This document shows, piece by piece, positions 2,129 to 42,490 of a stretch of DNA of 64,000 nucleotides. The notes below the pieces were generated by a model, which saw nothing but the letters and a program-made list of their open reading frames with translations, was not told the DNA's origin and did not search any database. The DNA is from Candidatus Omnitrophota bacterium. GTDB lineage: Bacteria > Omnitrophota > Omnitrophia > Omnitrophales > Aquincolibacteriaceae. The stretch covers positions 327-64,326 of the forward strand of contig JAYSWD010000022.1 of NCBI GenBank assembly GCA_043718225.1, given 5' to 3'. Within the stretch, counting starts at the first letter, position 1. Each line of letters begins with the position of its first letter. A program made the position numbers and the translations under genes.

Positions 2129-2224
2129 ATGAATACAAAAACACCATTTTATAAAGGAATTTCTGCATTTACGGTAGCCGCCGTGTGCTTGACGCAGATT
2201 TTCTTCGAGCAGCCCGCTCTGGCG
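2129..2224 (+). other. Predicted signal peptide of the giant protein
   Basis: MNTKTPFYKGISAFTVAAVCLTQIFFEQPALA|Q has a basic N-region, a hydrophobic core and an A-L-A cleavage-type motif. Confidence 0.6.
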
Positions 2225-5200
2225 CAAATGCCGGAAACGCCGCGCGCTTTAAAAGCTGCCGCGGCGTTTCAAATCGAAATTCCTCCCGAGCTCGGAAGAA
2301 TCGAAACCATTACTTCCGGAACCGGTCCCGTTTTCATCCACATCCAGGAAGCGCACGGGGATTATGAGTCGCAGAAGAAAATCGAAGCCTTACTGCATTA
2401 TCTAAAAAAACAGTACGGCGTGAAGCTTGTTCTGGTTGAAGGCAGCGCCGCGCAGCTTCATCCGGAGATTTTGAATTTTTTCCCCGCTGATCCCGCTGCG
2501 ACAAATAAAGTCTTGGACGCATTGGCGCGCGAGGCCTGGGCCAAGGGCACCGAAAGTTTTCTCGTGTCCGATAAAGAAACCGCGGCCTACGGTATCGAAA
2601 CATTCGGAAGCTATTTAAAAAACGCACGGCAATTTCAAACAATTTTAGGGCGCCGTAATGAAACGGCAGATTTTATCGATGCGCTGCAGTCGCGCATGCA
2701 GCAGCTCGCGTCGGTTTTACTTAATAAAAATTTGCGGTCTTTTCTCAGGCGCCGGCAGAGTTATGATGAAAAAGAACTGCCGCTTGCGGAATGGGTAGAG
2801 GCCTTGAAAGGCGAAGCCCGCAAAACTCTGAAAATTGACTTAACCGATCCGCTTTATCAGCTCGATTGGCCGATGTTTTTAAGGCTTTCCAAGCTCCAGG
2901 AATTCGAGACGGCGCTGGATTTTAAATCACTGCCGGCTGAGCGGCGCCGCTTTTTAAAATCTATCCGCCGGTTTTGCCCGGGCCTTATCTATCAAAAAAT
3001 TGAAGCGCTATTATCTTTGCCGCTTTCGCGCAACAATCTCTCCGACCCCGAAACCGGCATGCTGATTGAAAGCATGGTTTCCTATTTACCTGCAAATTTT
3101 AATTATGCTGCTTACCCGAACCTGAACCGTTTTATCGGACATTTGATCATGCAAAGCGAATTAAAAGGCGCCTTGCTTGCGGCTGAGATTGAAAAATTAG
3201 CGGCGCAGACTGCCGAGGCTTTGACGGAAAATCCGGTGGAAAAAGAGTTTCTGGATTTAGCCGCGGATTACCGTGCGATCCGTAAAATTTTTGATTTGGA
3301 ATTGAGTACGGAAGATTACGAGAATTTTTCGTCCGCGGAAGCCAGAGAACGGTTATTACCGTCGCACTTGCATCAACGGCTGAGCTCTTTTGAAAAAACG
3401 AACAGGGGCGAATCACTTGCTGCCATGGATGCAATGTTTACGCAAATCATGGAATTTTATGCGGGCGCCAAAAACCGTGACGGCCAAATGGCAGGACATA
3501 TTCTTGAACGCATGCGGCAAACTGGCGAAACCAAAGCGGTTATTCTGACCGGCGGGTTCCATTCGAAAGGTTTGGGAGATTTTTTGCGCGCGCACAACGC
3601 GAATTACGCTTTAATCAGCCCGGTGATTGAAGGGTTAGCGCACCGTGATGAATATTTTAAAACGTTTCTGGAAACCAGTTTTGATTCCGCCGGTCATTCC
3701 GCGGTGATGCGCCCCTGGCTTGCCGATTATAAAAATTTTCCGTGGTCTCCGGTTTTTGATCAGGCCCGCGCTGCGGCTGTAAACCGCTTTAAGCCGGAAA
3801 ATACAATTCTGCAAACAAGGGCCGGCGTGCATGAGCCGGATTTGACAGAAAAAGAGACCCGACACCGGACTGCGCCCGCACTGCCGGAATCGTTTTATGA
3901 CTTTGCCCCCGGCGGCCCGATTGCTTTTGTCGCTCGGTCTGAAATGCGTTTTTTAAACAACGGAATCTTCATATCAGCCGGAATATTTTTCAGCCGGTTG
4001 GCGCGACCTTTCGTCGAATTTATAAAATGGTATGGTGCGTGTCTACGGGAAACTCCAAGTCTGAGCCAGGTTGCCGACGAAGAATGGATCCGCTGGTGGA
4101 AAGAGGCGCCCACGGAAGAAGTTGCCAGAAAGATGGAACAAACGCTGAGAAAAGGAGAAAAGCTTTTTTCAAGATTCAAAACGAGGATCGACTCGTTGGG
4201 AAACCGCGGCACGCGGGGTTACGAAAGACGGCGTGAAGACGCGCAAACGGTTTTGTTTGATGAAATTCTTCCGGTTCTCCGGCACCAAGATTTTATTTTG
4301 GATATTTTAAAAAATCGCCGCGCCCAAAATGACGGCTGGGGTGCAACGATAGCAGCATTTGATAGTTTATTCCAAGAGGCGCGCAAAAAATATTACGGCT
4401 ACGAATCTCTTATAGGGCGATCTTTGCCGCTGCCGCAAAGACTCGCGGGACAACTGCCGGTCTCGGTTACTCATGATTTGAAAGTAGCCTTAGAAGAAGC
4501 GCGGCAACTTTTTTCAAAACTAAAAAAATTCGGCACATGGTTTAAATGGCTGCAAAAATCCGATAAAGAATTCTTTATCGGTAAAATTGTTCCGGCTTTT
4601 CTGGATCTAAAGACCATTGCGGAACTTTTGGAAGAACGCGGTCTTCAACATGGCGGCTTAACCGGTGCCATCGCCGAGTTTTCCCCTTTATATGAAAAGG
4701 CGCGCGCAAGAACCGGCGTTGATTTTTCTCAAGCATATGCCGCGTCAAACAAAAAATATGAAGAGTTATATGCGAGAGAAAAAGCAAAGTTCGGAGTTCC
4801 CACTACACTCCAGGAATTTATCCCTCGCCGCCAAGAAAAGAGCCCGTGGTTGGAAAAAATCGAAGCGGCCTTATCCAGAATACCTGTCAAAAGCCCGCCG
4901 GAGGATACGTCCGTGCCGCCCAAGTCGCCCCCTGTCGAGACCCCAAAAAGCGATGGAGGAGGAAACTATTATTTGATTCGAATACTGCAGCGCGCTATTG
5001 ATCAAGATATGGAAGCGGCTCGGAAATTGGACGGTCGCGAAGAAGCTTCAGTCACAAAGGAAACCCTATTTGCTCAAATCAAAAAGAATTTGGAAAAACT
5101 GAATGAAGCTTTACAAGGTCTTCGCGTAGAAGCGGCCCAAAATTCCGCTCGAGCATCCACTCAAACTGTCTCTCAGCGCGTGCAACAGGTTTACCGGAAC

Positions 5201-8200
5201 AATCAGCGCGCTTATCTGTTGGAAAGTTCCGATGCAGCAAGGCTCGTTCTAAAGCTGGAGCGCGCCAGAATCGAATATCAAAACAGGTTAGATGCCCTGC
5301 CGAGCAGAGCAATTTCCGCAAAGAAAGCCCTGCTGGCCACAATCGAAGAAATTGTAAAAATGAAGAATATAGCATCCCAACTTCGCGCGTATGAGGCCCA
5401 AAATTCCGCGCCGGATACCAATGGCGTGCTGCGGCTTGCGGCGGAAATAAATGACCGGCGTTCCCAGCGCAGCAACCCTGGCAAGGCAGCAAGACGCAGG
5501 CAGAAGTATCTCTCGGAACGCACACGCATTGAGGCTCTGGCTGCTCCACCCATCATTGGCGCGATACCAGATAAGCAACTTTTACAGCTTGCCCGCGAGC
5601 ATGAGGCTAACCGGCTAAAAGAACTATCTAACGAGTTGGAGCGCATCCGCCGGCAGCAAAAATTAGCGAGAGATTTGGAGCAAGGCGCGAATATGTCTCA
5701 AGATTCCGCCGGCATAAAGTACCAAGATACCCTCGCTTTACGGCGGTCTTATGCTGAAGACTGGGCGCGGAGACCTTACACGAGCGAACCTTCTTGGCGG
5801 TTTGTTGATGGTTGGGCGCAAAAGGATGGCACGGAAGAAAGTCCCCCCAGACAGTCAGAGGATGAGGACTCAGGGTCTTATGCAGGAAAATCTTACTGGC
5901 AGCGGCAGTATGGTGAACGCGACCGCGCAATCGAGGATTATCTCAACCGAGCGCAAATGACTTTTGAAGCGCTTCAGAAGCGCCGGGGTTTACTGAATCA
6001 TCGAAGAATAGTTGCGCAGAACACACGGGAAAAAATAGAAGGAAAACTGAGGCAAGCCGAATTTTCGCTTCGCCTTGTCAGCGTGCGCCGGAATTTGGCC
6101 GCAGCCTTTTTGGATGACGGAGATGTGGACTCAGCCGCGCATGAATGGAAAGCGGCGGACGCGGCGTTGAGACACATGGGAGGGCAGCAAACCGAGCTGA
6201 GCATAGAGGTCGAACGACATCAAAGAGTTATGGACACCAGACAAAAACTGTTACGCGCAGGGCTTGAATGGGCTGAAAAGGATGCAGGCGAGCTCACAGC
6301 CATCGGCCGGCCGCTTTTTTCCGGAGAAGAAAGAGAACCGGCAATGGCTGGAGCACTCGCCCGGCTCAATCGAATGCTGCCGGGGGATGAAAAAAAAGAA
6401 ACAAAAATGCGCCGGTTGTTTAATAAACTTTTGCGGCTGTCTCATGCGGCACAGCCTTTAACCCAATCCAAACGCGAGATTTCAAAGCTTCTAAAGGCAC
6501 TTAAGCACAAGCAAAGTCTCAAGGCGCTGGCGGATCATCAAAGCTATTTGGCGGCCCTCTTAGCGCAAACTTCTGAACTTGATTTTTCTTTGTACGCCGA
6601 AGCGAAAGAACTAGCCGAAAAGTTGCGGAAATTTGCCGACAGAACCGCGGCATGGGACGAGGCTATACCCGAAAGTGTGGGACCGGCCTATGATTTGGGC
6701 CAGAAGCTGGCGGCCTTTACTATTAAGTTAAGACAAGCCTTTGAAAAATGGATAGAAGAAGAAAGCCCGCACAGCGAATGGATGGATGGCCAAGTCCGTG
6801 CAATGAACGGCCGTGTTCATGATGCACGGGAAATAATTGATGCCGTCACGGACGGTGAAAGGACGCTGCGGGAAAAAATCGAAATGGCCGGAAGTTTACA
6901 AAGCAGCGTAATGAGCGCCGCGCTTGAGGTTCAGACGCTGCGGAGCCAATGGACGGCGATTGCAAACGGACAGGCGGCTGAAATAGGCAAGAAGGACGGT
7001 TCGCAAGCGGCGCATGCGCTTTTGCAGAAAGCGGAAACAGCGCTGCGAATAAAATTAGAAAAAGCCCGCCAAGCCGCTGCCGGATTTGATCAACTCGGCG
7101 TTCCTAAAAATGAAAGGGTATTAGCGGCCCTGCGGCAAATCAAAAAAGACAATGAAACTGCGGAACGCATCTTGGCATCCGCGCGAGTGCAAGTCATCAA
7201 TCAGGAAGCGGAGCTGCTTTTGGCGCGTATTCCGGAGCCCGCGGCCTTGGCAGATTTATATCATAAAAATCCAGCGGCCGTATTGGCGCGCCTGGAAGAA
7301 GCGGATGCCGCAATAGCCTTTTTGGCGCTGCTGGAACCTCAAGCGCGAGTTGCGGATCAAAACTTAATCGCCGGCTATCAAAATATTACATATGTGCCAA
7401 GTGATGTCCTTTGCAATGTGGATCGCCTCCATAACGATGCGCAGCAAAGGAGAGCACAGGGTCAAATCGTTCTGGATCTTTTGAAAACTGCAACCCGATT
7501 GCATGTACGGGCTGTCATGATAACTCACTTGCCGGCCGGTGTTGCTTCTGTTCCGGAAATCAAAAGTCTTGAAAAATTACGTGGCGGCCTTGAATCCATC
7601 GGAAGCGAATTGGCCGAGCGGGGAATGATCAATCATCCGGCGGTTGCCGGCGCTATAAAAGCGGTTCAAACCGGCATTGCCGCGCGGCAGGCCTTCCTTA
7701 GAGCCCGGGCGGAAAAAGAAAAAGAGTGGCAGGATGTACGCAAACACGCGGCGCTGCTTTATAAAAATATGTTGGATAACAGAAGGCAGGTTCATGGAGT
7801 TGCGGCAATTGTCGCGGTTTTAGATTCGGCACCCGGCTCTTTAAGGGGAATGTTCGCGCAATCAAAAGATGCGTTAGTCCGTTTACGCGGGTTGGCGCTG
7901 GCAGCCCACCGCTTGAATGGCCGGCTGATCAAATTAGAAATGACAGATGAAACCGCGCTTGCCGGTATTTTAGATGAAGTGCGGCAAGCCGCTGATCCAG
8001 CAGACCGGCAAATCCAGCGGGCGCGCCGGGCCGTGGAACTTTTAACTCAAGCCAAAACCGTTTCGGAGCAGGCCGCGGTACTTTCTGAAAGTATGCCGTC
8101 ACCTTTGGCTGTCGCCGCACTTTTCAACCGGCAAGGTGAAAAAGCTTTTGCTGTTGTGCGCCGCATGGTGCAGGAACAGGAAAGTCAATTCGAACAATTA

Positions 8201-11200
8201 CAACATCGATTGGATAACCTGCAACAAAAAATCGAAGCCGAAATGTTTAAAAAAGAAAACCTGGTTGATGAAGCGCTGCAGAGAGAGCAAAAGAAAACAG
8301 CAGCGGCAAAAGATCGCCTTGTCGCCGCCGGGCGGGAGGTTGAAGCGGCCATCGATGTCATTTCAAGCATAACGCAGGCCGCTGTCCGGACCGAGATACT
8401 TTTCCGGCAGTTGCGCACGCTAAATCCGAAGCGAATCGACGGGTTTTTTAAGCAGGGCGGTTTTAAGTTGGTGGCGGACCAAATGCGCCAACGCGAACAA
8501 AATTTCAAACGCGATTATCGGAAAGCATTACAAGAACATCATATCGCCGAAGCCCTTCAAGATGCCCGGCGGTGGGGAATTCTGGAAATTCCGGCGCTAG
8601 CCGCCCCATTCAAACTCATCGATGCGGCGCCGGCAAGGTTTGCAGCCTTTGTGTCGCCTTTGCTGGACCGTGCCGCGCGCCGCCAAACCGCTTCTGATCT
8701 TTTGGATGAGGCGCGGCGATACAAACAGACGGTTCTTGCACTGACGGAACAGGAAAAAATTAGAGATGAATATTTGCAGCAAGGCGGTAGCGCGGGCGCC
8801 CATTCTTTGGTTCAGGAAGCACGCGACATTCTTACGGATCAAATCAAAACCCGCGCGCAGCGTGCCCGGGAAGCTTTAGCTCCAGATGCCGATTTACAGC
8901 CGGAAGTTGCGCGCGAATTCGAACAAATTATAAATTCGGCCAACCAAGCCATCGAAGACGCCGGAAATCAAATTTCAAAAAGCGAAGCAGACAGCCGCCA
9001 GGCCGCTCAAGAAGCCGCGACGAAAACGAAAAACTTGCGCTTGCAAATTACGGCACAATTAGGCCGGGCAGGTGATTTGTTTGCGGAAATTGACAGAGCT
9101 TTTTTAAAGCCGGGCGGAAGTTTGAACGCTTGGGAGCTCATTACGCGCGCGCGTGTGGCTGCGGAAAGAATGTCAGTCCATTTGACAAGGATTCGCGTCG
9201 AAGCCTCAAGACTTCCCGAAAAAACCACAACGCTTCAAAGCTTGATGCAAGCCGAAAAAAACCGGCGCGCAATTCGATATTTATTGCAAGCGGCGGCGAA
9301 GCATCTGCTTGAGTTAGAAGAAAAAAGCCGGTTTGCCGCCTTGACAGCCGCTCTTCAGGCTTCTGTCAGACAGCAGGTCATTGAAAGGATATTTGCCGAA
9401 GGCGGTCAACAATTTGGCTTTTTAAAGCGTATTTATCTCGAGTCCGGCAGCTCTCAAGCGCGCGAATTGCTTGAAAAAGCGCAAGCATTGGCGGGGCCGA
9501 ATAGGGCGAATGAATTACCGCGCGGCAGTACGGGGTTCAGGGCGGATTTCACCGTCGCCGCCGAAGAAGAAAACCGTTTCCCGAAAGTTAAACGCCAGGG
9601 CCACGAGGCCGCCATTCAAGAAAACTGGCAGGTGGCAAGCGTGCTATTACAGCAGGCCGCCCGCGAGGTGGAAAGACTCAAACAACAAAGCCGTGCAGAA
9701 TCTGTTCAAGCGGCTTCATCTTCGGGTAAGCTGCATGACGAAATTGAAGCCGCTTTGGGTGATCCGACTCAGCCGTTAATTCATATCCGTGACATTTACC
9801 TTAAGCAAGGTGCCGCCGCCGCGCGGAATACGGTTCGGGAACTGGAAATAAAAGCGCATGGTTTTATTCCTTTGGGCGTGACGGCTGTGACTGCGGCGCG
9901 CCGGCTGCCGGAACAAACCGTGCTGGATAACCGCCGCAAAATCGCAAATGACCGTCTCGCTATCCGGCAGCAAATCCGCGAGGCGCGGCGCATGATCGCT
10001 GTGATGGAAAATCAAAGTGTCCAAGTTTCCGCAAGAACCGAGCAAGCCGCGGAATATTTGGCGAAACGGATTCAAAGCGATTTGAAACGGGTGATTTCGC
10101 ATTATTTGGATGAGACAAAAGGAGCGGCAGTTGCGGAAAGCGATATCGCAGCTGCGGAAAAATCCGCCGAAAATTTTAACAGGCTGCTTGGGACGGCGCA
10201 AATGGCATGGGAGCAATTGCAATATGCATACGGCGAAATATTCGTATGGTTCGATTTACAAAAAATCAAACAACATCAAGCAGCGGTGCGTCAAGCGCTG
10301 ACGGATGCGAGACAGGCGCTTGAAAATACGAAAAACGCCAGCCGTGTCATTGCTTTTCTGGCCGACCAAGATGCTTCAAGGCTTTATGCGCTATCAATCC
10401 CAAGTTTCGGTGATAAAAGCGATCAATTTGCGCATGTACGCCGCATTTTCTTCAGCGAAGGCAGTGCCGCTGCACATGAACATGTCCGCCGAATTCAAAT
10501 AGCCTCCGAAGCATTCGATGGTTACGTCACTGACAGCGAACGCGAAAAAAACCGGCTGCCCGAACAGTTAATAATTGATCAACACAATCGAGTTGCGGCT
10601 TATCGAACCAGGGTTGCGGCACAATCCCGCATAGCTTTCAATTTGATCGAAAGTTTTGAAGCCACAGTTGAACAGCAGGCAGCCGCTGCGGGCGTCGAAT
10701 CTGCTGCGGCGCTGCGCAGGTTGAATCAAACGCTGATAACGGTGCAGGATATTATCGATCAACAAGGGCCTTTGGCGCAGGCGCAAAATGCGGTCAAACA
10801 AGCGCGCGAACAACTTGCCATCATCCTCGACCAGCAGCAAAGAATCGTGGATTTAGCAGGCATTTTTAATTCAGAGCGCGTGCTCGCAGCGAACGGCCAA
10901 GCAGCTCAAAATGCAATCAATGCGAATTCTGCCATCGCTAATGCAGAAGGGAGGATTGCGAAAGAAATCTGGAGCATTCATTTGCAATCATCTCAAGACA
11001 TGGCTGCGGCCGAGCAGATTGCGGGTGAAATTAAGCAGGAGGTCGAGGGCCAGTCAGTCGCGGTTTATTTTTCTCAAGGAAGCGCCGCCGCGGGCGGCCG
11101 GGTTGCGGAAGGCGAAAAACGGGCAGCAGATATCGAATTGCTTGAAAGCAATGCCGCCAGACGTTTACGGCGGCTCGATGACGATACTACGCGCACGTAT

Positions 11201-14200
11201 GACGGCCGGATCAGAAAGGCACGAGAGGATTTAGCCGCTCTTTTCGCAAACGAACGCGCGCAAATTGAACGATTGCGCGCGCAAAGCGCCGCTTCAGCCG
11301 AAGATGCGCAGCAAGCGGCCCAAACCATTTTCAATGCCGCGGCCAATGCGCTTGAACATCTTGGCGGTTCTTTTAGCCGTGGAAAGGCAGACGTTGTGCT
11401 CGCCGTTTTACGTGAAATAAAGATGAAGGTGCTGGCCGGTCATTTGGCAAACGCCGAGCGGGCGGGGCATGAGCTTGATCGTCCCAATTTGCCGCAAATC
11501 ATCGCGATTCAAAATCTTCAAAACCAGCTGGATGCGTTGCTTGAGGGCGGTCAGTCGGCTTTGACTTTATGGAAATTGATCCAACGGATTACTTTGACCG
11601 CGAACAATCTTTTGCGGACGGGAGATCGAACTACTGCCGTACTAAGCGCTGCCGCGTGGTTACGTTTTGAGACATTTAAATTGGAAGCCGACGCAATCAA
11701 CGCACAAGTGCGTAGCCCGACCGCCGCGCAGGTGCTGCCCCATTACATTCAAACCGGGACACAGCTGTTGGTAATTATGCAGCAAGACGCGCAGCGTCTC
11801 GCCGACAATCGGGATTTAGACCAATATGAAGGACTCTTTCGCGGCTTTGCTGCCGCTATTTCGGGCTGGAGCAGTTTTTGGCGTGTTCATCAAATGCGGC
11901 AAATCGTGGTGCAACTTGAGAATGGCCGGACATGGTTGACCGAATTGTTAAACGCTTCGGAGGCTGCTTTCGGAGACCGGCAATTAGCGTCCAATTTCGC
12001 GCAAAGAAGGGATGCACTGCGGGAAAAAATCGAAAACCGTTTGAGAGCGGTAAACCGATGGCTTAAGTTTTTGGCGCTGTTTATGCCAAAAAGAGAAGCG
12101 CAATTCCCAGTTATTTTGAAAAAGCGACCAGTCTCAATTGCCGAAGATATAAATCAAACAATTCCGCAGCCGGCTGAACTAGTAACCCCATTCGTGCCTG
12201 CCGCCGCAGCCGGAAATAAAGATGAATTCATAGCTTCGCCGGCAACACTGGCTGGAGTCATCGGCGATGATGCTCTGCCGGTGGCTTCCTCGCCTGCGCG
12301 GGCATCAGCGCCGGTAGCGAAAAGTTCACCAACTTTACGGCACCCAGATTGGCGCGTGTTGAGCGGAATTGCCGCAGCGGTAGCTGTTGTTGCCGCTGTA
12401 TGGCTGATCCCTTCGCTTCAGCACAGAAGTAAAGATATCAAAGCACCGTCCGCGGTTTTGACGGCAACGTCAGAAACTCAAAATCCGGAAGCAAATGCTA
12501 CAAACGAGAACAATCCCCGTATGGGCATTCGATTCACACAGACAGCACCGCAACCAGCGCAATCACCGGCCGCTGAGCCTGCAGGTTTTGCTGCAAGCAA
12601 TACTGTTGCGTCCAATGCCGCCGATCGACAAACCGGCAGTGCAGTTGCCGGCAAAACCGGTGAGGAAAATTCGTTTAGCATCGGAAGATTTTGGATCAAT
12701 ATTTTTTGGAAACTTGGCGTGCTACTTATTATTGTTGGAGCCGCATCCTTATTAAGATTGAGGCGCGCAAAGCCGCAAACGGCGAAGCGTGTTGTCTCTG
12801 GCACGGCAGCGATTCAACCGCCAGCAGATTCAGGCTTAACTAAAGCCGGAACGATTGCGGAGGCCGCGAATATTTTTCCTCAATTGCCCGTTAAAGCGTC
12901 AAAGACTGCACCTGCGATAGGGGAACCACAGTCGAACCCCGTAGCGAAGAAGAACGCGCCGCTTTTATTGACGGCAGGAGCGGGTGGAATAACGGGCGCG
13001 GTAGAAAATACTTCCGATGCTTGGATGCAAATTTTTGAGCAACAGGTTCTACCGCTTATTCTTTCTGGCAATAATTCCGCGCCTTTACTTTTAATGCCGG
13101 GTGCGTCAAATGAGGCATCGGCAGCATTGGGATTTGCGCTTAATACCGGTTTCCAAGGTTCTTCAACGTTTACACATGGTCATGTCCCGCAAAATAATCC
13201 GCTACAAAACCGCACCGCGGATAATTCAGGAGATATCTTGGCGCAACAAATTGACGCGTTTTTGAGAGCCGGCAGAAAAGAGCCGAGTCAATCAAACGCC
13301 CCTGAAAGTTTTTGGCCGCAAGCCATCCAATTTTTGTCAGGTAAACCAGCCGCTTCGCCATCTGATCCGATGTTTTTAACCGAACGGCCAGCGCCTCTTT
13401 TACTTACAGCGGGTCCTATCGGGAGGATAGCTGAGACAGTTATCACCGTTCAAGCCGAACGGTTTAATCAAAATTGGGAAGAAGTGGAAAAATGGCAGAT
13501 GCGACAGCCAAAACCGGAATCGATTGAAGCAGAAACGGAAACAACCGGTTTTTCCGAAGCGGACATTTTTAACAACATGAAGCCGAGTCGTTTGGCTTGG
13601 CAGAAAAAATCAAAACCGCGGACCAGAATCGTGCCTGGCGAAATGCCCGAACAACCGTTTGAACATATCAGCAGACAGGCACAAACCGGTGTCGGAGGAA
13701 TTTCATCTGCCGCCGCTACCGGTTTAAGCGCAGCTTTAGTTACGGACACGGCTTCGGAACAGGACATAACCGGTGAAACGGCAGTAAGCCCACGTACCCA
13801 TTGGCGGGACAATCATTCTAGGACAATCACGAATGCCGAAAAAAAAGATCATGTTAAATTAACGCATAAAGATTGGCGCGCTGCCAAAAAAGTATTGCGC
13901 CAACCGGTTGTGGGGCTGGTAGACACTGAGCGTCAAATAATCGAGCAAACAATACATCGAGAGCTTGCGGCAGCCGCGAAAGCGCAAGACGCCGTTACGG
14001 CGCAGAAAGCTATCAGCACGGCGCTGGCGTTGGTACCGGCCGTATCCGCTCATTTATGGCCCGTTATTATGATGGAATTAAACCGGGCCGATGCGGCGGT
14101 GTCGAAACGTTTCGGAACACCGTTGATGCTTACTGACCGCGAACGCCAAGTCGCAACGGACGAAAACGTTGCAAGCACGGTAGTTGAACAGCCTGGTTCA

Positions 14201-17200
14201 ATGGATGAGCAATTAAAGGACACAGCGGCAGAGGAAATCAAATTACAGCCGGTCAGAATAGCTGTTTCGGAAGAAGCCGAACCCGCCAAAACGGCGCGGC
14301 CTAAAATTATCCTTACAGGTTCAATTGCAGCGCTGCTTCCGCCGGTAGTCTCTGCTGCAACGGGAAAAAGGCCTAAAAAAGCGCAATTGCGGAAAGGTAA
14401 ATCCACCGCACCTAAAATGCAAACTGCCGGCGCACGCGTAGCAGTGACGGAAATGCCGGGGGTAGACTCAGCGGTGCCGATTATTACAGCCGGTCCTGTA
14501 GCTCCCACGGCAATTATTTTGGAAAGCGATTTATTTACAGCTCAGCCGGCAGACGATGAATCCAACGAGGTCGGTATTTTTGCAGAAATAAAAGCCCAGA
14601 GGCTTATTGCGACAAGAAGATTAATGCTTAATGACCTAAGCGTTTCGCCCGCAGTGCGCGCTCAGGCAGCAACCCAAATTCCTGCCGCCGCCTTTGCCAG
14701 GGATACACTTTTACCCAAACTTTTGGAAAGACTTATTGAGCAATTGCTGCCTGATTCTGGCGAACGTTTGCTGCTTGAGAATAGACAGCGGGAAGCGCGC
14801 GCGCTAGCGGCTGATCCGGCCGAATTAGACGTTCAAAGCGAAGATGCCGTTGCACCTGTCAAAACCAAGCGGCCTAAATTTATTCTCACAGGTTCAATCG
14901 CCGCATTGCTTCCACGGTCCGTGCGCGTTACAACCGACGCGACACCCGCGAGCGAACAGACAGTCGAATTTTTTACAGAAAATTCCGTCTCCGATGCCGT
15001 TCAGCCGGTTGCAGTTACATCTGATCTTGATGTCCAATTACCCCAGGCCGGCGCAACAGCTGCAGAAATTGCGACGGTTGTGCCGCCTTCGGTTTCCAAC
15101 CCGGAATTTATTTTGGCCGGACCCATTGCGGTTCCTTCATTGAAACTATCGGCGCATAATTTTTATTTTGTTCCCGTCGGCTTCTATGATTTGGGAACAA
15201 GATTAGCTGCGGCCGCCACCGGCGGAGTCATTGCCGGAACCGCCGTCGTTATGGAGGAGAAAGGATCTTCAACCGAAAAACCTGCCGATTCAAAAAAGCC
15301 TTTTGTTTTATCGCCTAATGATTTGGAACAAGATTTGTTTACATCGCCGACGAGAGATAATGAATATCAATTTGCTCAATCTGCCGATTTCTTGGGTGCC
15401 TTGGTCCGCAAAGGAATGCCTTCTAATCTTGTGCGGGGGAATTTTAGTGCTGCACCGAATTCGCCGGCGGGAGAGGATGAATCCGCTCAAACCGGTGGAA
15501 CAGACAGAGTGATTGTCTATCCGGACATGCACGCAGCAGCCGCGCAAACAGAAGAATCGCCCGAGACTGCAGGTTTGGATGCTGAACAGGAAGATGGCGG
15601 CAAAGCTGCGGTAAGTCCCGTTCCTGCTGCCGCAGCGCAAAAAGGCCGCGGCCGAAAATGGATTTTGCCCGCAAGCATCGCCGCCGGGCTGACACTGGCC
15701 GCCGGCCTGGCTGTTTGGAGTTTTATTTTACCGGCGCGGGTTCCCACTCTCGCTAAAGTTACTCAATCCACAGAGGAAAGCGATGAAGACAAAAAACTTG
15801 TGGAAATGATTAACGGTCAAATTCCAAAAATTTCAGCTGCTGTTAAAGACTTGCAAGCCAATTTCGTTGAATTGGATACACAAATATCAAAAGGTAAAAA
15901 AACGATAGGCCAAATTGAAAAACTCACGGAACAAGTGCAAGCCGAGCTGGCTCGGCTGGAAAAAATGCCGGACAAAATCAAAACTAACGAATGGAAAGCA
16001 CAGCTGAAGAGCAAGTTTGGCCTTTTAGAGAGGCGTCAAGAAGACCTCACGCAGAATGTTAATGTTTCAGAAACCCAACTGGCAGCGCTAAAGAAACAGC
16101 GTGATGCTTGGAATATACAAATCGAAATGTTCAAAACAATCATCGAAATGAAACCCGGAGACCGGCCAAGGGCTTTACAGCAATTGCAATTTGCTTATCT
16201 CAATTTACAGCGCGCGCGCGATTTTCACGATCGACAGCCCAGGTATTTGCCGGCTACTTTCAGTCCCGAGTCAAACCAGAGTAGCAATTCGCCGAATGAG
16301 AAGTTTGAAAAACTTTTAGGGGAATTTAAAGAATTAAAAATTGCGCTGGGCAAAGCTGAAGAAGTTCGCAAAAAAGCGTTGCAGGACATGCTGGAAAGAA
16401 ATCAGCGGGCCTTAGAGAACCTCGCGCAATCCGGAGAAGCGGCTCAGGGGGCAATTATTGAAACGGAAATATATTTGGCCAGCCTGAAGCAAATCAGTTT
16501 TTCCAAGCCACTAGCATTGTGGACATCTTCTACTACAGTAACGGATCCGGCGGCTCATGAAAAAATAAATATCGCACCTGAAAACCCGGAAGTTAATATC
16601 GCAACTCATCCGCCGGTGCTTGATATGCCGCCGACAAATCTTTCCGAACCTTTAAAGCCGAGCGTAGCGTCCGCGCCTTTGCCCGAAACGACAGCTTTGC
16701 CGGAAATGGGTGGAGAAGAACAATTGATGCTTCAAGCTTTGCCCCCGGCACAGCCGGCATCGACGGCGCCTTTTGCTTCCGGCACAGGAGTTGATTTGCA
16801 TGGGCCAACTAACGTGGATGCTGAACTGGCAAAACCCGCAGTTGCTCTATCAATGCCATCTTCCACGGTTGCGGCTCCGTCCGCCGCGCCGGCTGCTGCC
16901 TTGGAAACCCAATCTGCTTCGCCATCCGCACAAACCGATTCATCGGCCGCAGTCAATTCCGGCGGACAAACTAATACCGGCCGCGGGATACCTGTCGTGC
17001 CGGTTGCCGTGACGATAGCTCCACTAGCTCCATTTTTAATCAGCGGCACGCTTTGGGGGATAATGGGAGCATTGGCAGTTCTGATGCTTGCTTTCAGCGG
17101 ATGGCTTTTATTGCGCTTGCGTCCAAAAACTGTTTCTGCCGTTCCTTCGTCCGTTGCGGCTCCATCCGCCGCGCCGGGGGTAGGCTGGCGCTTTTCTTGG

Positions 17201-20200
17201 TTTAGAAAATCCGCGCCTAAACCGTTACAGCCCGCGCCAACAGCGGTGCCGCCAAAGACGGGAATAGCAGCACCGGGGCCCGCTCGAACAGCGCCTGCAA
17301 CTAAGAAAACCAGTGCGTTGCCGGCAAAACTAAATACTGCACCGCCTGCTTCTGCGGTTCTGCCCGTCAAAAAGGCTAAAACAGGTGCCGATGTGAAAAA
17401 TCCAATTCCGACTCCTACACCGGGAGCTTCGACGACAAATATTGTGTCCCCGCCATCAGCAGCTTCTTTGGGTCCGCCGGAAAGGCAGACTGCCGCAGCG
17501 GCCGGTCATTCAGAGACTTCTCCGCCGCCGGGAAAATCCGCTGATGCAAAAAATACAGATGATTCACCGCCGATACCGGTCGTGCCTTCTGGCGCGAAAG
17601 AAAAAGCCTCTGCTGTACCTGCAATTGCAGTACCCATTCCGGTAGTTTTGCCTGATGTAGCCGCAACGAGTCATGCCGCAGAAGAAAAGCCTGCGAATGC
17701 CGGCACGAATGCTTCGCATCCAGCTGAAACACACGCTTTAAAACCGGCTTCGGCTGATTCAATTTTGTCTCCGGTGCGTTTTAGACTACCCCGGTGGGTT
17801 ACGCCCGTTGCAGCGGCCGCGGGAATTGTTGCCGGATTATTTTTATTACACAAAACGCATCAAGAAAAATCGGGGGCCGGATCCAAAACCGCAATGACAT
17901 TGCCGGCAAAAGATTCCACGCCTGAAACAGAGGTGCAACTTCGCGACGATTCGCTTCCTGCAAATGTGGCCTCACCGGCGCCTGCTGCAACTGGTAATCA
18001 AAACTTGGCGGCAACACCGCAGCCGCCAACCATGGTTTTGGCCGAAGTGAATCTCAATGATTTGACGCTACGACCGGTGCCTGTATCGCCAATAACTTTT
18101 ACTTTCGGTTCAGCACGTCCCACGGCGGATATGACAAATATATTCGCACCCGCGCCTAAAATGTCGCCGTTCGATTTTTCCGAACCTTTTGTACCGGCGG
18201 CGCTAGCTTTGAATTTGCCTGATACAACGAACCTTCATTTGCCGGAAATAAGTTTTGATCATTTAACTCCGTACACTACGCCTTTATCGCCAATGCCCTT
18301 TGCTTTTGATGTGGCACGTCCCGCGGCGGACATGACAAATATATTCGCTTCCGCGCCTGAAATGTTGCCGCTCGACTTCTTCGCACCTTCTGCGACGACT
18401 GCGTTAGCTCTGAATTTGCCTGACACAACAAATTTGAATTTACCGAAAGTTAATTTCGATGATTTGACCTTGCGACCGGTGCCTGTATTGCCAATAACAT
18501 TTACTCTCGGCTTGGCACGTCCCGCTGCGGATATGACAAATATATTCGCTCCCGTGCCTGAAATGTTGCCGCTTGACTTCTTCGCACCTTCTGCGACGAC
18601 TGCGTTAACTCTGAATTTGCCTGACACAACAAATTTGAATTTGCCGAAAGTGAATCTCGATGATTTAAACCCTTTGCTGAAACCAACGGATGCTGGTTTG
18701 CCGGGAGTCGTTTTTCCGTCTGAGACTATGTTGAGCTCGACGCAACCGCAAGCAACACCCGGTGTTGTTCCGGAAACACCGGGTGTTGCAGGTTTAGAAG
18801 TTGCGTCTGCCCTTGTGCTTAATTCACCTACCGTGCCGCAACCTGAAAGCATGATAACGTTAACGGTGCCCGAAATGTCGCGATTTGCTTTTTCTGCCGA
18901 ACGGATTGAATTGGGTCTGACACCCGTGCCTTTGCTCAAGTTAACGGATGCTGGTTTGCCGAGGGAAGTGAATCCTCCTGACAACTTAACGTCGGGCGCT
19001 GCACCGGCTAGTGCTGTAAAAGTGAAACCGCCTTTCAGGGCGACGGTGTCTGTATTGCCGGTCCCAGTTGCGATAAAATTCGCATTAACGCCGCCGGGGC
19101 AAAGGTCCGAAAATTTACCGGCTGCTCCCGATTCCCAAATCACTAGTGCCCAAACAGAAAAAAAGAACGCTTCGCATGCGGCAGTATCGCAGTCACCCCA
19201 GGAAAGGGGGGGCTCTACGGTCGTTGCAACCCCAAAAGAAAGCAATCAGTCCGCGGAAGCAGAAGCAACAAAAGTGCAGAAGCCGGCTGTGACAGTTAAA
19301 GCAGCGGACAAATCCGTAATCGCTGAAAAAGTAAAATCGCCTGCCGGAGGCAAAACAGAAAAATCAAAAACGCAGGGTCAAGCTAAAGCGGGAAAAAACG
19401 CTCAGCCAAAAATAGAAATCAAAAGAGCGCTGCTCACACGTGCTTTGCAAGAAAACAGCCAAGGCTTGGATGTCTTTGCCGCGGAAGCAGCTTTGCAGGC
19501 ATTAAATCCGGCCAACACCCGGCTTATAGGTGAGGCCGATGGTGATTTTGATGGACGTTTGGCACGTGCCTCGGATACTTTCGCGCATAATTGGAATCTT
19601 GAGCATCCGGGGCAACCGCGTTTGATTTTAAACGGCCGCATTGAACCACAAAAGTTTGCCAGGATATGGGAAAGTTTGACGCCGCAGCAAGTGCATGCTT
19701 TGCAAGCAAAAGTTGATAATCAAAATTATGATCATGTAAAAGGCGGCGAAGCAGTGAAACAGGCGCGGGCGGCGCACAATAAAATCGCCAAGACGGAATC
19801 AATGCCCGCAGCCAAAATGATTGCGGCGGTTTCAACGGTTGGGGATATTACGAATACCGGACACGCTGAAGAGATGTTTGCCGCAAGCGGTGATGATACG
19901 AATACTGCGAAAAAATCATTGCAAACGGAACCCGACTCGAAAGAAACGGCAAGCACGCCTTCTGCATCTCAGGTTCCCGCACCGTCTACCGTTGTGAAAA
20001 CTGATCCGGTTTCGCCGCCCGCTGCAGCTTCCGCTGTGGGAGTTCAAAAAGAAGCAACGCCAGCTAAAGTTGCCGCAGGTCCGATTGCACCAAAACCCAC
20101 ATTGACCCAGCCGGTGCAGCATACGCTTCCCAAGGTGGGTGAAAAAGTAATTACGGCGGCAAAACCAGGGGTTTCGCAGCATGTCACCGGAAAAACGGCG

Positions 20201-23200
20201 AAAGCGAGTTCGTCGCCGCAGAAAATTTTACAGGCGCGGCTGACGCGTACTATTAATCCCGGCGATAAAGGACTCGATGTTTATAGCATTCAAGCATTTT
20301 TTTATACGCAAAGCGATTTTTACCGGAACTTAGTGGGTAAGCCGACGGGCAAAGCCGATCAACAGTTCAAGAAGACGGTTCTCACCTGGAAAACAAATTG
20401 GAACCGCACCAATCTTCGTCCCGGCAAAAAACCGCTGGAGATGACTCCTTCTCTTGATCAAGCAACTTACGCGACAATCCGCAGAAGTTTGGATGATACA
20501 CAAGTTTATAAAATGAACCAGCTGTATGCGCGTGAAAATTGGAAAGCGATTCCGGGCGGTATGCATGTTATCCGTGCCTTGAAAAAAAGGAATCAAGAAA
20601 AAGCACATACTGTAAGCTCTGCCGTGAAATTGGCGGCCGATTCAACAGTCGGGGATATTACGAATACCGGAAACGATGAAGTATTGTTTGCCGCAAGCGA
20701 CGACGATGTGAACTCTCAGGAAGAGACCGTGCAAACGGCGACCGATTTGGATGAGCCAGTATTCATAGCTCAAAATACCGTTTCAGTCGAGTTAACACCG
20801 GCTGCTGATTTGCCTGTTGCGCCGGAAGCGCCGATTGTTATGGATGCACCTGGCCATTCAACGGCAGCTGCGGCGCTATCTGCGCCTGCCCTTGCGTTTA
20901 ATTTACAGACCGTGCCGCAATCTGAAAGCACGGTCAAGTTACCGGTGGCCAAAAAGCCGCAGTTGGCTTTTTCTGCCGCGCCAGTAGAACCGGGCCTGTC
21001 GCCAACGGATGTTGGTTTGCCAAAGGGAGTGAATAATCCACCTGACAACTCAGCGTCGGGCGCTGCACCGTCAATGCCATCAGCCCCGGCGACACAAGAA
21101 GTTCCCACGCCTGCGCCAGCGATTGACAGCACGCCTTCGACACCTGAAATGCCCGCTGCTGCGCCATCAGCGACAATTACGCCGTCACCTAATTTTGCAC
21201 CGCTAGTTGTAAGCACGCCTTCTGTGCCTAAAACACCGGCGGTTGTGACGTCTATCACGCCAACAGCACCGGCACCGGCAGCTAAAAGTCTTGCTCCCGT
21301 ACTTCAACCGCCGGCAAACGAAATGTCGCCAACAAATACTCCGGCCGGCACGGCAGTCGATTCCGGCATCGGGCAATTCCAAACTCTTTTGCCGGAAGCG
21401 TCACGGGATCAAGCGGTTTCCGGAAATTTAACGGAGGCGCATCCCATTCCCAGAAATATGCCGCAAGTTCTCGATTCCGACCACGAGACCACGCCACATG
21501 AACTTGCGGCGCCGACCGCAAATCAGCCGCGGCCGGATATCGCGGCGGCCTATGTGCCGAAAGAAGAAAAAGCGCATGTTCAGGCAGCGACCGCGATGAC
21601 CAATGCAATTAACGAGTTAATTGCTAAAGGAGAACTCCCCTTGATGGCAAGCAATGGTTCGGGGGGGCAGCGCATGTCGCCGTCTGCCCGTCGGCACCTT
21701 GGCGACTTGCTGAAAGATTCACGGCGGGTTAAGGGCGATAAAAAATCTCCGAGTAATAAACCTAAAGCAGATAGTAAATCTGCAGATAATAAAAAAGCGA
21801 ATAATAAATCTAAGGCAAAAACGGTCAAAGTAGAAAAAAAGACAACGATTGTCACAAAGAATAAAGTTGGAAAGAATAAAACCGCAAATAATGGCATCAA
21901 AGATTATTCCCTGGTTACTCCCAACATGCGCGGCGCTCTTTTGGAGCATGTCCCGTTTCCGCCACAGTATTTCAAGCGCACAGTGGGCGGCACCCGCATT
22001 AATGCATCGCGCGACGGCGGAAAACGGGTTCATAACGGCCGTGACGGAGTTATGCCCATCGGCGTCCCGCTGTTTGCATCATTAAAAAATCCGTGGATAC
22101 GCTATGCGGGAACCATGGGTGGATACGGAAATATAGTTATCATTCGTGGTTGGGGTTTGGATGGTAAATTACGTGATTTTCCTCGTGGGCATGTCGGTAA
22201 AATGAAATTTTTAACGAATAATCAATTCGTTCCTTTTGCCCGGGCTCAACATGTCAAATCCAGTACGGTCGTAGCCTATTCTGGAAGATCAGGTATTAAA
22301 AATGACGCACCGCATACGCATGACGAATCATGGCTCGTAAAAGGCGGAGTGAACGGCGAAGGATGGCGTCTCGGATCAACCGGGCGTGATTTCCGCCTAG
22401 AGAACATTGATTGGATTTATGAAAATGCCGTGGATTGGAATGGCAAAGGTGGGTATGCTTCCAATAGTTTAGAAGCAAAAAAAGAAACAATAGGCCGCGG
22501 TTTTAGAAATGCGGGAATAGTTGGAATAGCTGCCGCCGGATTTATTGCCACGGCTCCGGCCGAAAAAAATGCTGCGAAAAATGTCAATTCGCGGGCGCCG
22601 GCGACGGATATTCTCGATCAAGCGCTGGCAGCTGCCGGTCTATCGATCCCAAGTTCTTCCCAAGCAGCGCCTGCCCGTGCGGCAAAAATTATTGCAGGTT
22701 TGAATGTGCGCGATTTGACGGCACATATTCCTTTTATTGCGCCTGTCCCCGATGCGCGTGGTTTCGGGATTAATCCCGCAAGCCCGCCCGCATTTCATCC
22801 CGCCAACTCTAAAGAAGAAGTGTCTTATAAAATTGCGCTCAAAGTAAATGCCGGATTGGCCATGCAAGCATTGCAAGATGCCTTGCGACAGAACAATTTA
22901 ACTTGGCCGAGACCGGGAACTCCTGAACGCAAGGCTCTTGTAAAAATATTCCTTCAAATGCCGCAGGAGGCGAAACCGGTTAGCCAGCAAAGCTCATTCG
23001 CGCAAGCCGATGCCGAGCAACGCCGGCGAGTGGCAACCCAAATTTTCTCCGCTTTGAAGTCCGCAAGCTCTTCACAGGCCTCAAGCACAAATTTGTGGCC
23101 CGCGTTAGCAAGGCTTAACAATTTGCCCGAAACCGCTGTTTTCAAGCCGCACAAAGCCGGTCTTTCCAAGACAAGTGTTTTCAAAGGTAAAAAGACTATC

Positions 23201-38706: not shown

Positions 38707-40341
38707 TTAGCTCAGAGATTCTTCGTCGTACGAAGGAGTGTCCGCGCCCTTTTCGCCCTTTTTAGGCTCTGCTTTTTTTTCGATAATCGCACATTCGGTC
38801 GTCAGGATTAATCCCGCCACGCTCGCGGCATTTTCAAGCGCCGTACGAACGACTTTGGCTGGGTCAATCACGCCGTTTGCGATCAGGTCTTCATGTTCGC
38901 CTGTCGCCGCGTTAAAACCGAAGGAACCTTTGCCTTCGAGAATTTTCTTCACGACAACCGAACCGTCAAAACCCGCGTTTTCCGCGATTTTGCGGGCCGG
39001 TGCTTCAAGCGCACGGCGCACAATGTCAACGCCGGTGGCTTCATCGCCCGTAGCCTCAACATTTTTAAGCGAAGCGATAGAACGCAGCAACGCCACTCCG
39101 CCGCCTGCCACAATACCTTCCGCAATCGCGGCGCGTGTGGCATGCAAAGCATCATCCATGCGCGCTTTCTTTTCTTTCATTTCAATTTCAGTGGCCGCTC
39201 CCACTTTAATGACGGCGACACCGCTTGAAAGTTTTGCTAATCTTTCTTGAAGCTTTTCACGGTCATAGTCGGAATCGGTTTTAGCGATTTGGCCTTTAAT
39301 GTGTTCACAGCGCGCCAGAATGTCTTTTTTCGCGCCGGCTCCGCCGATAATCGTCGTATTGTCTTTATCCACAACCACGCGTTCTGCGCAGCCGAGGTCT
39401 TCAATTTTGACGTTTTCGAGCTTAATACCGAGATCCTCAGATATGAAACGGCCTTTTGTCAGCGCCGCGAGATCTTCAAGCTGCGCTTTACGTCTGTCGC
39501 CAAAACCCGGAGCTTTGATCGTGCAAACTTGGAGCGTACCGCGGATTTTATTTACGACCAAAGTCGCTAAGGCTTCGCCTTCGACTTCTTCGGAAATAAT
39601 AAGTAACGGACGTCCGGATTGAGCCACGGCTTCAAGCACGGGAATCATTTCTTTGATTGAAGAAATCTTTTTCTCACAAATCAAAATATAAGGGTCCTTG
39701 AGCACGGCTTCCATGCGGTCGGCATCGGTGACGAAATAAGGCGAGAGATAGCCGCGATCAAATTGCATACCTTCGACTAAATCCACTTCGGTTTTAAAGC
39801 CTTTGGCTTCTTCAACCGTGATCACGCCGTCTTTACCGACTTTTTCAAGAGCGTCAGCGAGTAATTGGCCGATTGAAGCGTCTCCGTTCGCGCTGATGGT
39901 CGCAACCGCTTTCCAATCGTCTTTGCCGCTGACTTTCTTTGAAAGCCCTTTGATTGATTCAACCACGGCTTTAACCGCTTTATCAATTCCGCGCTTGAGA
40001 GCCGTCGGATTGGCGCCCGCAGTGACATTCTTCAAGCCTTCGCTGACAATGCATTGAGCGAGGACGGTGGCGGTTGTTGTCCCGTCGCCGGCTTCGTCAT
40101 TTGTTTTTTCGGAAACTTCGCGAACCATTTGGGCGCCCATATTTTCATAGGGGTCCTTGAGTTCGATTTCCTTAGCAACCGTAACGCCGTCTTTTGTAAT
40201 AATCGGCGCGCCGAACTTGCGGTCAATTACGACATTGCGGCCGCGGGGCCCCAGAGTTATACCGACCGTTTTGGCGAGGATATCCACGCCACGCTTAATT
40301 TTCTGCCGCGCTTCTTCCGAGAATGTTACTTGTTTAGCCAT
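38707..40341 (-). CDS. groEL: Chaperonin GroEL, copy without a GGM tail
   Basis: Full-length Cpn60 ([21 protein letters not shown]). The C-terminus is [23 protein letters not shown] instead of Gly-Met repeats. Confidence 0.95.

Positions 40342-40813: not shown

Positions 40814-42490
<1,677 letters not shown>

Follow-up and report, generated by a model that had tools for sequence, protein, structure and literature searches.

Spectrin repeats (spectrin, alpha-actinin, dystrophin and the plakins; PF00435) are units of ~106 residues in cytoskeletal, eukaryotic proteins, in which the sequence is very degenerate between units, one helix of ~30 and one of ~60 residues lie between successive turns, helices A, B and C make up an antiparallel three-helix bundle with left-handed connectivity, helix C runs on into helix A of the following unit, the hydrophobic residues follow a heptad-type pattern and a Trp in helix A is nearly conserved. 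Bacteria offer a precedent for such an architecture without spectrin homology in the cytokinesis regulator EzrA, a linear series of ~100-residue antiparallel triple-helical bundles that has no sequence homology to spectrin (PMC4243239). In the giant staphylococcal adhesins Ebh and Embp, FG/F repeats (FIVAR-GA modules) form strings of three-helix bundles with shared helices, and the string acts as a rigid ligand-binding rod (PMC7587433; PDB 2DGJ, 6GV5, 6GV8). Here we analyse a diverged helical repeat array in a 7,384-residue protein encoded by a Candidatus Omnitrophota bacterium (GenBank assembly GCA_043718225.1, contig JAYSWD010000022.1, positions 327 to 64,326 of the forward strand; this whole stretch of 64,000 nucleotides is referred to as the window). 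On the architecture proposed below, the array works like spectrin and plakin rods, EzrA and the Ebh/Embp strings, yet by sequence it belongs to none of these families, and the repeats are best described as a family that is new by sequence, with one member so far, and that takes up a known architecture under unusual circumstances.

The array interval (7850–11410) falls entirely inside one open reading frame (ORF) on the forward strand, 2129..24283, identified from the ORF list and its translation; on the opposite strand of the interval the list contains no ORF of 150 residues or more. The identical protein is present once in a collection of 15 billion proteins, as a singleton cluster of NCBI origin. 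A first-pass annotation of this DNA had listed twelve recurrences of a degenerate anchor (two hydrophobic residues, three further residues, Gly, then small or Ala-rich residues), and the coordinates and spacing that it gave are exact: all twelve anchors lie in frame 0 of the ORF, at residues 1908, 1998, 2106, 2215, 2325, 2436, 2557, 2659, 2774, 2875, 2980 and 3081, at distances of 90–121 residues, and units are named below by these positions. The motif itself holds for ten of the twelve, which show the hydrophobic pair followed by Gly within two to four residues; anchor 1908 (MFAQSK), which has no Gly, and anchor 3081 (SFSRGK), which is missing the first hydrophobic residue, fit it poorly. In its strict form, [FY][FL]xxG[GSA], the motif occurs seven times within residues 1851–3150, where 5,000 shuffles average 0.09 and reach at most 2, with spacings of 109, 110, 111, 121, 217 and 206 residues, and is found a single time in the remaining ~6,100 residues of the protein.

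Because this strict motif was defined post hoc, with the data already seen, an independent leave-one-out profile test was added, in which each unit in turn was scored, alongside 300 shuffled versions of it, with a profile hidden Markov model (HMM) built from the other eleven. Units 2215, 2325, 2436, 2557, 2659, 2774 and 2980 beat all 300 shuffles, with z-scores of 5.9–20.1. The periodicity is also recovered by self-alignment, a check that the annotation had proposed: BLASTP of the protein against a copy of itself in which the query segment had been masked aligns residues 2488–2617 with 2712–2834 at 27% identity (E 1e-9, an offset of about 217–224 residues or ~2 units) and residues 2371–2486 with 2709–2812 (E 2e-4, an offset of ~3 units). 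The notion that the periodicity came about by chance, in helical sequence that is Ala-rich and of low complexity, draws on the post hoc definition of the anchor, on the five units that fail the leave-one-out test and on an ungapped lag autocorrelation that barely exceeds the shuffles (best lag 217, z 4.8, compared with a shuffle maximum of 4.6). The last of these is expected, because the unit lengths vary (101–121 residues). Chance is hardly credible against the seven units that exceed every composition-matched shuffle on profiles built without them, the BLASTP match between units two apart and the seven motifs, at near-constant spacing, where 0.09 are expected, and for the core of seven to eight units it is largely refuted.

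The core array occupies 8771–11368, with all units on the forward strand. Unit 2215 (residues 2215–2324, 8771..9100) scores 15.5 bits in the leave-one-out test (z 7.8) and is followed by unit 2325 (residues 2325–2435, 9101..9433; 26.2 bits, z 11.0), which belongs to a class carrying an exact RLPE motif, here at 9209–9220. Unit 2436 (residues 2436–2556, 9434..9796; z 7.1) has in the alignment a ~12-residue insertion in its short helix, and leads into unit 2557 (residues 2557–2658, 9797..10102; 39.2 bits, z 20.1), again of the RLPE class (RLPE at 9902–9913). Beyond unit 2659 (residues 2659–2773, 10103..10447; z 5.9) lies a third member of the RLPE class, unit 2774 (residues 2774–2874, 10448..10750, RLPE at 10553–10564; z 8.2), which takes part in the BLASTP match at E 1e-9. 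A divergent unit (residues 2875–2979, 10751..11065; z 0.6) is counted by its position between two supported units, its length of 105 residues and its IIDQQGP anchor, and the core closes with unit 2980 (residues 2980–3080, 11066..11368; z 7.0), which carries a degenerate RLPE (RRLDDD) and aligns with unit 2557 at a pairwise z of 6.7. The seven units are thus a solid core, and the eighth has supported units on both sides. For the four outer units, which would extend the array, possibly to twelve units, over 7850–11683, the case is plausible but unproven. Three of them, anchored at residues 1908, 1998 and 2106 (7850..8770), are put forward by motif resemblance, with leave-one-out z-scores of 3.1, 2.3 and 0.6 that fall within the shuffles; FFKQGG in unit 2106 fits the strict motif, and unit 1998 aligns with unit 2325 at a pairwise z of 4.0. 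The putative last unit (residues 3081–3185, 11369..11683; z 2.5, not significant) was recognised from its SFSRGK anchor and from LDRPNLPQ where the RLPE loop would fall.

The units are 18–27% identical to one another. In pairwise local alignments the top score is that of units 2557 and 2774 (z 10.5), and the mean z depends on the distance between units, being 4.4 for units two apart and 4.1 for units four apart, compared with 2.9 and 2.0 for units one and three apart. A second motif, A-x-RLPE(Q/K)-x6-8-R, had been assigned to alternate units, and exact RLPE does mark these: it is found solely at residues 2361, 2592 and 2809 (anchors 2325, 2557 and 2774, +36 residues), with the degenerate forms RFP (unit 2436) and LAP (unit 2215) at the same alignment column in intervening units. 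The statement that the repeats are too divergent to be recent DNA duplications is correct. There is no DNA-level tandem repeat in 7850–11410, where the sole echo at the level of DNA comes from the RLPE codons themselves, 651 nucleotides apart, and the duplications are therefore old. Judged from its sequence, this is an array with an underlying two-unit period that presumably arose by ancient duplications.

An HMM iterated from the seven solid units failed to draw in the outer ones. Marginal matches were obtained upstream, at residues 1622–1695 (~6992–7213) and 1250–1314 (~5876–6070), with first-pass E-values of 0.0095 and 0.027 within this protein; the later high scores of these segments are circular, and no extension of the array is claimed, although the segments may be eroded units. 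Near them, a RIPE motif occurs at residue 1700 and an anchor-like LYHKNPAAV at residue ~1711. The spacing of Pro/Gly clusters over residues 600–3420 has no clear periodicity outside the core.

Searches for relatives of the repeat were uniformly negative. Pfam gave no family for the whole protein at E ≤ 0.01, and on six two-unit pieces the Spectrin family (PF00435) was not matched even at E ≤ 10, with scattered noise as the only return; nor were there matches to FIVAR, GA or DUF1542 in the array, whether the whole protein or the six pieces were searched, and NCBIfam returned nothing for the repeat region. An exhaustive phmmer search of the 1,200-residue region against 1.84 billion representative proteins recovered only the protein itself, and a word-indexed search of 5.8 billion protein clusters, by sequence and by the eight-unit profile, found no relatives. 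Queried with the repeat region and the same profile, the sequences of the PDB gave nothing significant and no spectrin, and a scan of JGI metagenome contigs found no relative of the repeat.

The array region is rich in Ala (17%), Leu (~10%), Arg (9.5%), Gln (8.8%) and Glu (8.2%) and poor in Pro (1.9%) and Trp (0.6%), with ~44% apolar residues. In the eight-unit alignment the strongest period of the conserved large hydrophobic columns is 3.6 residues, and it runs through the entire second half of the unit, which corresponds to a long helix. We modelled two units (residues 2557–2773) with AlphaFold from a six-row pseudo-alignment of non-overlapping two-unit segments of the protein's own repeats, used because there were no homologues to align, and obtained a model with 90% helix, a predicted local distance difference test score (pLDDT) of 67.6 and a predicted template modelling score (pTM) of 0.42. 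Its helices span model residues 5–33, 39–104, 109–145, 151–203 and 207–216, the first two being residues 2561–2589 and 2595–2660 of unit 2557 and the next two belonging to unit 2659. A four-unit model (residues 2290–2735, three-row alignment), from which the secondary structure alone was used, is 88% helix by DSSP with the same alternation of short and long helices. The layout across the models is therefore one of a short helix of 29–37 residues and a long helix of 53–75 residues per unit, joined by two short turns of 3–5 residues at the conserved motifs. The helical character given in the first-pass annotation is borne out, by the models as by the hydrophobic period, and modelling of consecutive units, which it had proposed, is informative as to helicity and helix alternation and unreliable as to packing over four units. 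Two other folds were considered in the course of the analysis. A charged single alpha-helix is ruled out by the ~44% apolar residues and the 3.6-residue hydrophobic period, and a HEAT/TPR-type solenoid by the 34–47-residue units of those families together with the lack of Pfam matches.

A Foldseek search of the PDB with the two-unit model ranked plectin spectrin repeats 7–8 first (5j1g; E 0.17, probability 0.96, template modelling (TM) score 0.43), and ranks 1, 2, 8, 12, 19, 30, 41 and 43 are all spectrin or plakin repeat pairs aligned over ~190–220 columns; the lower matches include erythroid alpha-spectrin repeats 16–17, Entamoeba spectrin repeats and other plakin fragments. Isolated three-helix bundles of ~100 residues superpose at ~3 Å root mean square deviation (rmsd), with TM scores of about 0.72–0.75 normalised to the target. 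The same models could be read as long hairpins or as an intermolecular coiled-coil fibre (dimer or trimer) in which the Gly and Pro motifs serve as hinges or stutters and no discrete intramolecular bundles form: the four-unit model gave long helices without confident packing, and HlyD, an SMC fragment and F-BAR are also among the non-significant Foldseek matches. We consider this decidedly unlikely, given that regular helices of ~30 and ~60 residues with turns of 3–5 residues suit back-folding better than a continuous coiled coil, that the top two-unit matches are spectrin pairs and that single bundles superpose at ~3 Å.

The label 'spectrin-like' in the annotation accordingly applies, with moderate confidence, to the architecture, that is, to the layout of short and long helices and the top Foldseek ranks, and does not extend to membership of the spectrin family, for which the Pfam match and the conserved Trp are both lacking. 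The core units, at 101–121 residues (90–121 over all twelve), are close in length to spectrin repeats and share with them the degeneracy between units and the pair of ~30- and ~60-residue helices between successive turns; plectin repeats 7–8, erythroid spectrin repeats 16–17 and the Entamoeba repeats are top-ranked but non-significant structural matches. Where spectrin has a heptad-type pattern and the helix-A Trp, the array has a 3.6-residue hydrophobic period but no conserved Trp column in the eight-unit alignment, and the conserved elements are instead the two turn motifs, in a bacterial array that is predicted to be extracytoplasmic. EzrA resembles the array as a bacterial spectrin-like architecture without spectrin homology, but it is a cytoplasmic, FtsZ-binding protein with five repeats and an N-terminal transmembrane anchor, whereas here 8–12 units follow a probable signal peptide in a protein of 7,384 residues; EzrA is not among the Pfam, PDB sequence or Foldseek matches of the array. 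The closest functional analogues are Ebh and Embp, giant surface proteins with tens of diverged helical repeats. These differ in coming from Gram-positive bacteria and in having units of 125 or 170 residues with two small bundles each (~7 nm per repeat), compared with one larger bundle per ~108 residues, with two turns per unit, in the predicted architecture of the Omnitrophota array.

The turns are the best-conserved parts of the unit, which would be explained if the motifs are helix-capping signals. Gly commonly serves as a helix C-cap, Ser as an N-cap and Pro-Glu as the start of a helix. The first turn, [YF][LF]xxG(S/A)AA, would then cap the long helix at its hydrophobic C-terminal end, turn the chain at the Gly and supply Ser as N-cap for the short helix, and in the second, R(L/F)P(E/K), the Pro (Pro-Glu) would open the long helix. 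Conservation at the turns, and not only in the core, could also mean that the repeats are mainly a multivalent binding surface of the Ebh/Embp kind, in which the YLxxGSAAA and RLPE motifs are displayed to a repetitive ligand of the host or prey envelope and the rod is secondary; structurally this overlaps with a spacer and differs from it in function. The helical-bundle repeats of Embp both form a rod and bind ligand (PMC7587433), and giant proteins of Omnitrophota have been proposed to mediate attachment (10.1101/2023.11.21.568195). We regard a primary binding role as unlikely, however: helix capping alone would demand the same conserved turn residues, the units are otherwise 18–27% identical, which leaves few exposed positions conserved enough for a shared site, and no ligand or partner is indicated.

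Helices of ~30 and ~60 residues that alternate with short turns have one obvious compact solution, serial three-helix bundles that share the long helix. Each bundle would take the second half of one long helix together with the short helix that comes next and the first half of the long helix beyond it, and successive bundles would be connected through the shared long helix as in spectrin and plakin rods. The location of the array in the protein bears on where such a structure would reside. The protein begins with a probable Sec signal peptide (residues 1–33, 2129..2227, forward strand), read from the translation as MNTKTPFYK, the hydrophobic core GISAFTVAAVCLTQIFF and ALA-Q, and a homologue (P0002) has an N-terminus similar to this signal-peptide-like start. 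A hydropathy scan finds no strongly hydrophobic segment between the signal peptide and residue 3410; the first such segment 3' of the repeats, a probable membrane anchor, spans residues 3410–3428 (12356..12412, forward strand; Kyte-Doolittle 19-residue mean 2.35), and several further hydrophobic segments lie downstream of it. From its position between the signal peptide and N-terminal domain on one side and this anchor on the other, the array is predicted to lie outside the cytoplasm. There it would form a semi-rigid spacer of ~4.5–5 nm per unit (half a long helix), so that eight units would span ~40 nm and twelve ~60 nm, and would keep a ChaN/Tiki-like N-terminal domain at a distance from the rest of a giant envelope protein, the part that is anchored in the membrane and carries the M23 peptidase. 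The explanation that we favour, with rather more confidence than doubt, is thus an exported spacer built like spectrin from three-helix bundles in series. Of its elements, the repeats, their helicity, the alternating helix lengths and the lack of homologues are observed, and the packing into bundles, the rod, the topology and the role as a spacer are proposed.

Several observations weigh against this explanation. The four-unit model failed (pLDDT 44.7, pTM 0.22) and is too poor to display an extended rod; the shape of the rod and its length of 60 nm, which the first-pass annotation had already put forward by analogy, are therefore ones that we infer. No Foldseek match in the PDB is significant, the best having an E-value of 0.17, an rmsd of ~10 Å over two units and a TM score of about 0.4, and the three-dimensional evidence is weak, coming from a model with a pLDDT of 67.6 and a pTM of 0.42 that was built on an alignment of the protein's own repeats. 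Five of the twelve units (1908, 1998, 2106, 2875 and 3081) are not significant alone, with leave-one-out z-scores of 0.6–3.1. An orthologue of the repeats is absent from every collection searched, so selection on them is not measurable. The signal peptide and the topology were read by eye and by hydropathy scan, and are predicted on that footing. Finally, at 40–60 nm or more the rod would be longer than the Gram-negative periplasm is wide by the usual figures, so that a perpendicular spacer would have to cross the outer membrane or reach the surface, or else the rod would lie along the membrane.

The last of these arrangements, in which the array lies flat as a two-dimensional or arc-shaped envelope scaffold in the manner of the spectrin skeleton or EzrA and does not project as a stalk, would accommodate the length, and the protein has several further hydrophobic segments downstream; the spectrin-like bundles of EzrA bend into an arc beside the membrane (PMC4243239). 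It appears very improbable, as there is no sign of membrane- or partner-binding sites in the repeats and the N-terminal end would be left without an anchor once the signal peptide is removed. At the other extreme, the core array could be the best-preserved part of a longer filament from residue ~640 to residue ~3330, a region rich in Ala, Leu, Arg, Glu and Gln that would amount to ~25 bundles and more than 100 nm, and would make the protein a reach-and-tether contact apparatus in one chain. An ultra-small Omnitrophota cell would use it to tether a Tiki/ChaN-like head far out, with the membrane anchors and an M23 hydrolase on the same chain; such a filament would be extracytoplasmic, would have evolved independently and would serve a host- or prey-dependent lifestyle. 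We raise this as a speculation with little probability.

Relatives of the N-terminal domain place the exported spacer in a wider family. The domain (residues ~10–530; 2228..3727, forward strand) has a weak ChaN/Tiki-like match (Pfam Cofac_haem_bdg, E 1.6e-3, below the curated cut-off) and three homologues in the protein search. In GTDB genomes an alignment-based scan, confirmed with tblastn, found 222 relatives, with a best identity of 44% and often several copies per genome; the best 80 of the 222 come from Candidatus Omnitrophota/Omnitrophica metagenome-assembled genomes (MAGs) or from 'uncultured bacterium' MAGs (loci L003–L082). In most loci the domain heads an ORF of more than 3,800 residues that runs past the 10-kb flank, and in two (L001 and L002) it is a stand-alone protein of ~500–616 residues. 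Three of the relatives' ORFs include domains of triosephosphate isomerase, of GT1/GT4 glycosyltransferases or of aldose epimerase, and the helical repeat is in none of these. The repeat HMM found nothing in the ORFs of 82 N-domain loci (best E 0.5), and in 46 long ORFs of N-domain relatives the repeat motif has no periodic spacing and the composition is ordinary. Since the ORFs of the relatives do not have the repeat, the array is probably a lineage-specific insertion or expansion within a family of very long envelope proteins.

This family recalls what has been described for the phylum. For giant proteins of Omnitrophota, roles have been proposed in attaching to host or prey cells and in degrading their cell walls, and the Archaeovorin/Dockerin-type giants are at least 30,000 residues long, with SecA DEAD-like, HEAT/TPR, glycosyltransferase (GT) or dockerin/TSP3 domains (West-Roberts et al. 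2023; bioRxiv 10.1101/2023.11.21.568195); a second preprint reports that tandem-repeat scaffolds made by ancient duplication are common in Omnitrophota long proteins (bioRxiv 10.64898/2026.06.07.730766). The present protein resembles such proteins in its homologous N-terminal domain, its signal peptide and transmembrane segments, its old internal duplications and a domain of cell-wall hydrolase type, and differs from the described giants in its length of 7,384 residues and in having no SecA, HEAT, TPR, dockerin or TSP3 domain by Pfam. A keyword search of these two accounts met no comparable helical-bundle array. Type II secretion-like genes were not seen next to the giant gene, in which it differs from many described Omnitrophota giants.

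The hydrolase-type domain lies near the other end of the protein (residues 6634–6733, 22028..22327, forward strand) and is a divergent M23-type metallopeptidase domain (Pfam Peptidase_M23, E 9.5e-4, 19.8 bits compared with a cut-off of 28.7). The match covers positions 2–86 of the 96 in the profile, HNGRD aligns with the HxxxD motif, an HTH (HxH) is visible in the translation and the top PDB sequence matches are M23 peptidases, which suggests that a peptidoglycan-hydrolase module is part of the same protein. The C-terminal ~240 residues (7126–7367, 23504–24229) resemble the last ~240 residues of another long Omnitrophota ORF (locus L028, ORF 4345–13314; E 3e-10), suggesting that some of the N-domain family share a conserved module at the C-terminus.

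Other repeats are present in the protein downstream of the array. A recent DNA tandem repeat at 18041–18666 (residues ~5305–5513; period 201 nucleotides, 3.1 copies, 79% match) encodes Pro-rich 67-residue units with 61–69% protein identity, in contrast to the ancient helical repeats. A domain of ~190 residues is duplicated at residues 5731–5920 and 6003–6190 (19319–19888 and 20135–20698; 32% identity, E 1e-20), and Pfam gave no family even at E ≤ 10 for residues 5501–5900, which cover its first copy; a shorter stretch is duplicated at residues 5564–5619 and 6257–6307. A further segment is repeated at residues 3996–4086 and 4211–4277 (14114–14386 and 14759–14959; 35–59% identity) with the motif (K/A)RPK(I/F)ILTGSIAALLP, and short related motifs, PLLLTAGxxG and EFILAGPIAVP, recur across residues 3600–4340; these are moderately hydrophobic and may be membrane-associated. 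Directly upstream of the giant ORF, on the same strand, the product of a gene at 48–1454 strongly matches the two lipase maturation factor domains (LMF1 and LMF1_C). Elsewhere in the window two adjacent full-length Cpn60/GroEL-family genes stand in tandem on the reverse strand (38707–40341 and 40847–42490), and no tRNA genes or Rfam matches are present in the window.

One protein on one metagenome-derived contig is the sole known source of the repeat, whose function is inferred; this limits its practical significance, and for the structural claim to carry weight a confident model or an experiment is needed. A fragment of 2–5 units would be compact and expressible, and would offer a handle on whether proteins of this kind form long surface spacers. 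About 15% of Omnitrophota long proteins have no Pfam match (10.64898/2026.06.07.730766), and the array gives a structural reading to part of this unannotated 'dark matter'. In 2014 the string-of-bundles design was described as one that only spectrins and EzrA appeared to have (PMC4243239). If the architecture predicted here is true, the spectrin-type string of three-helix bundles would have arisen once more, with no link in sequence to the other cases, and such a design would occur extracytoplasmically, as part of a giant envelope protein from a bacterial phylum that is poorly known and probably host-dependent.

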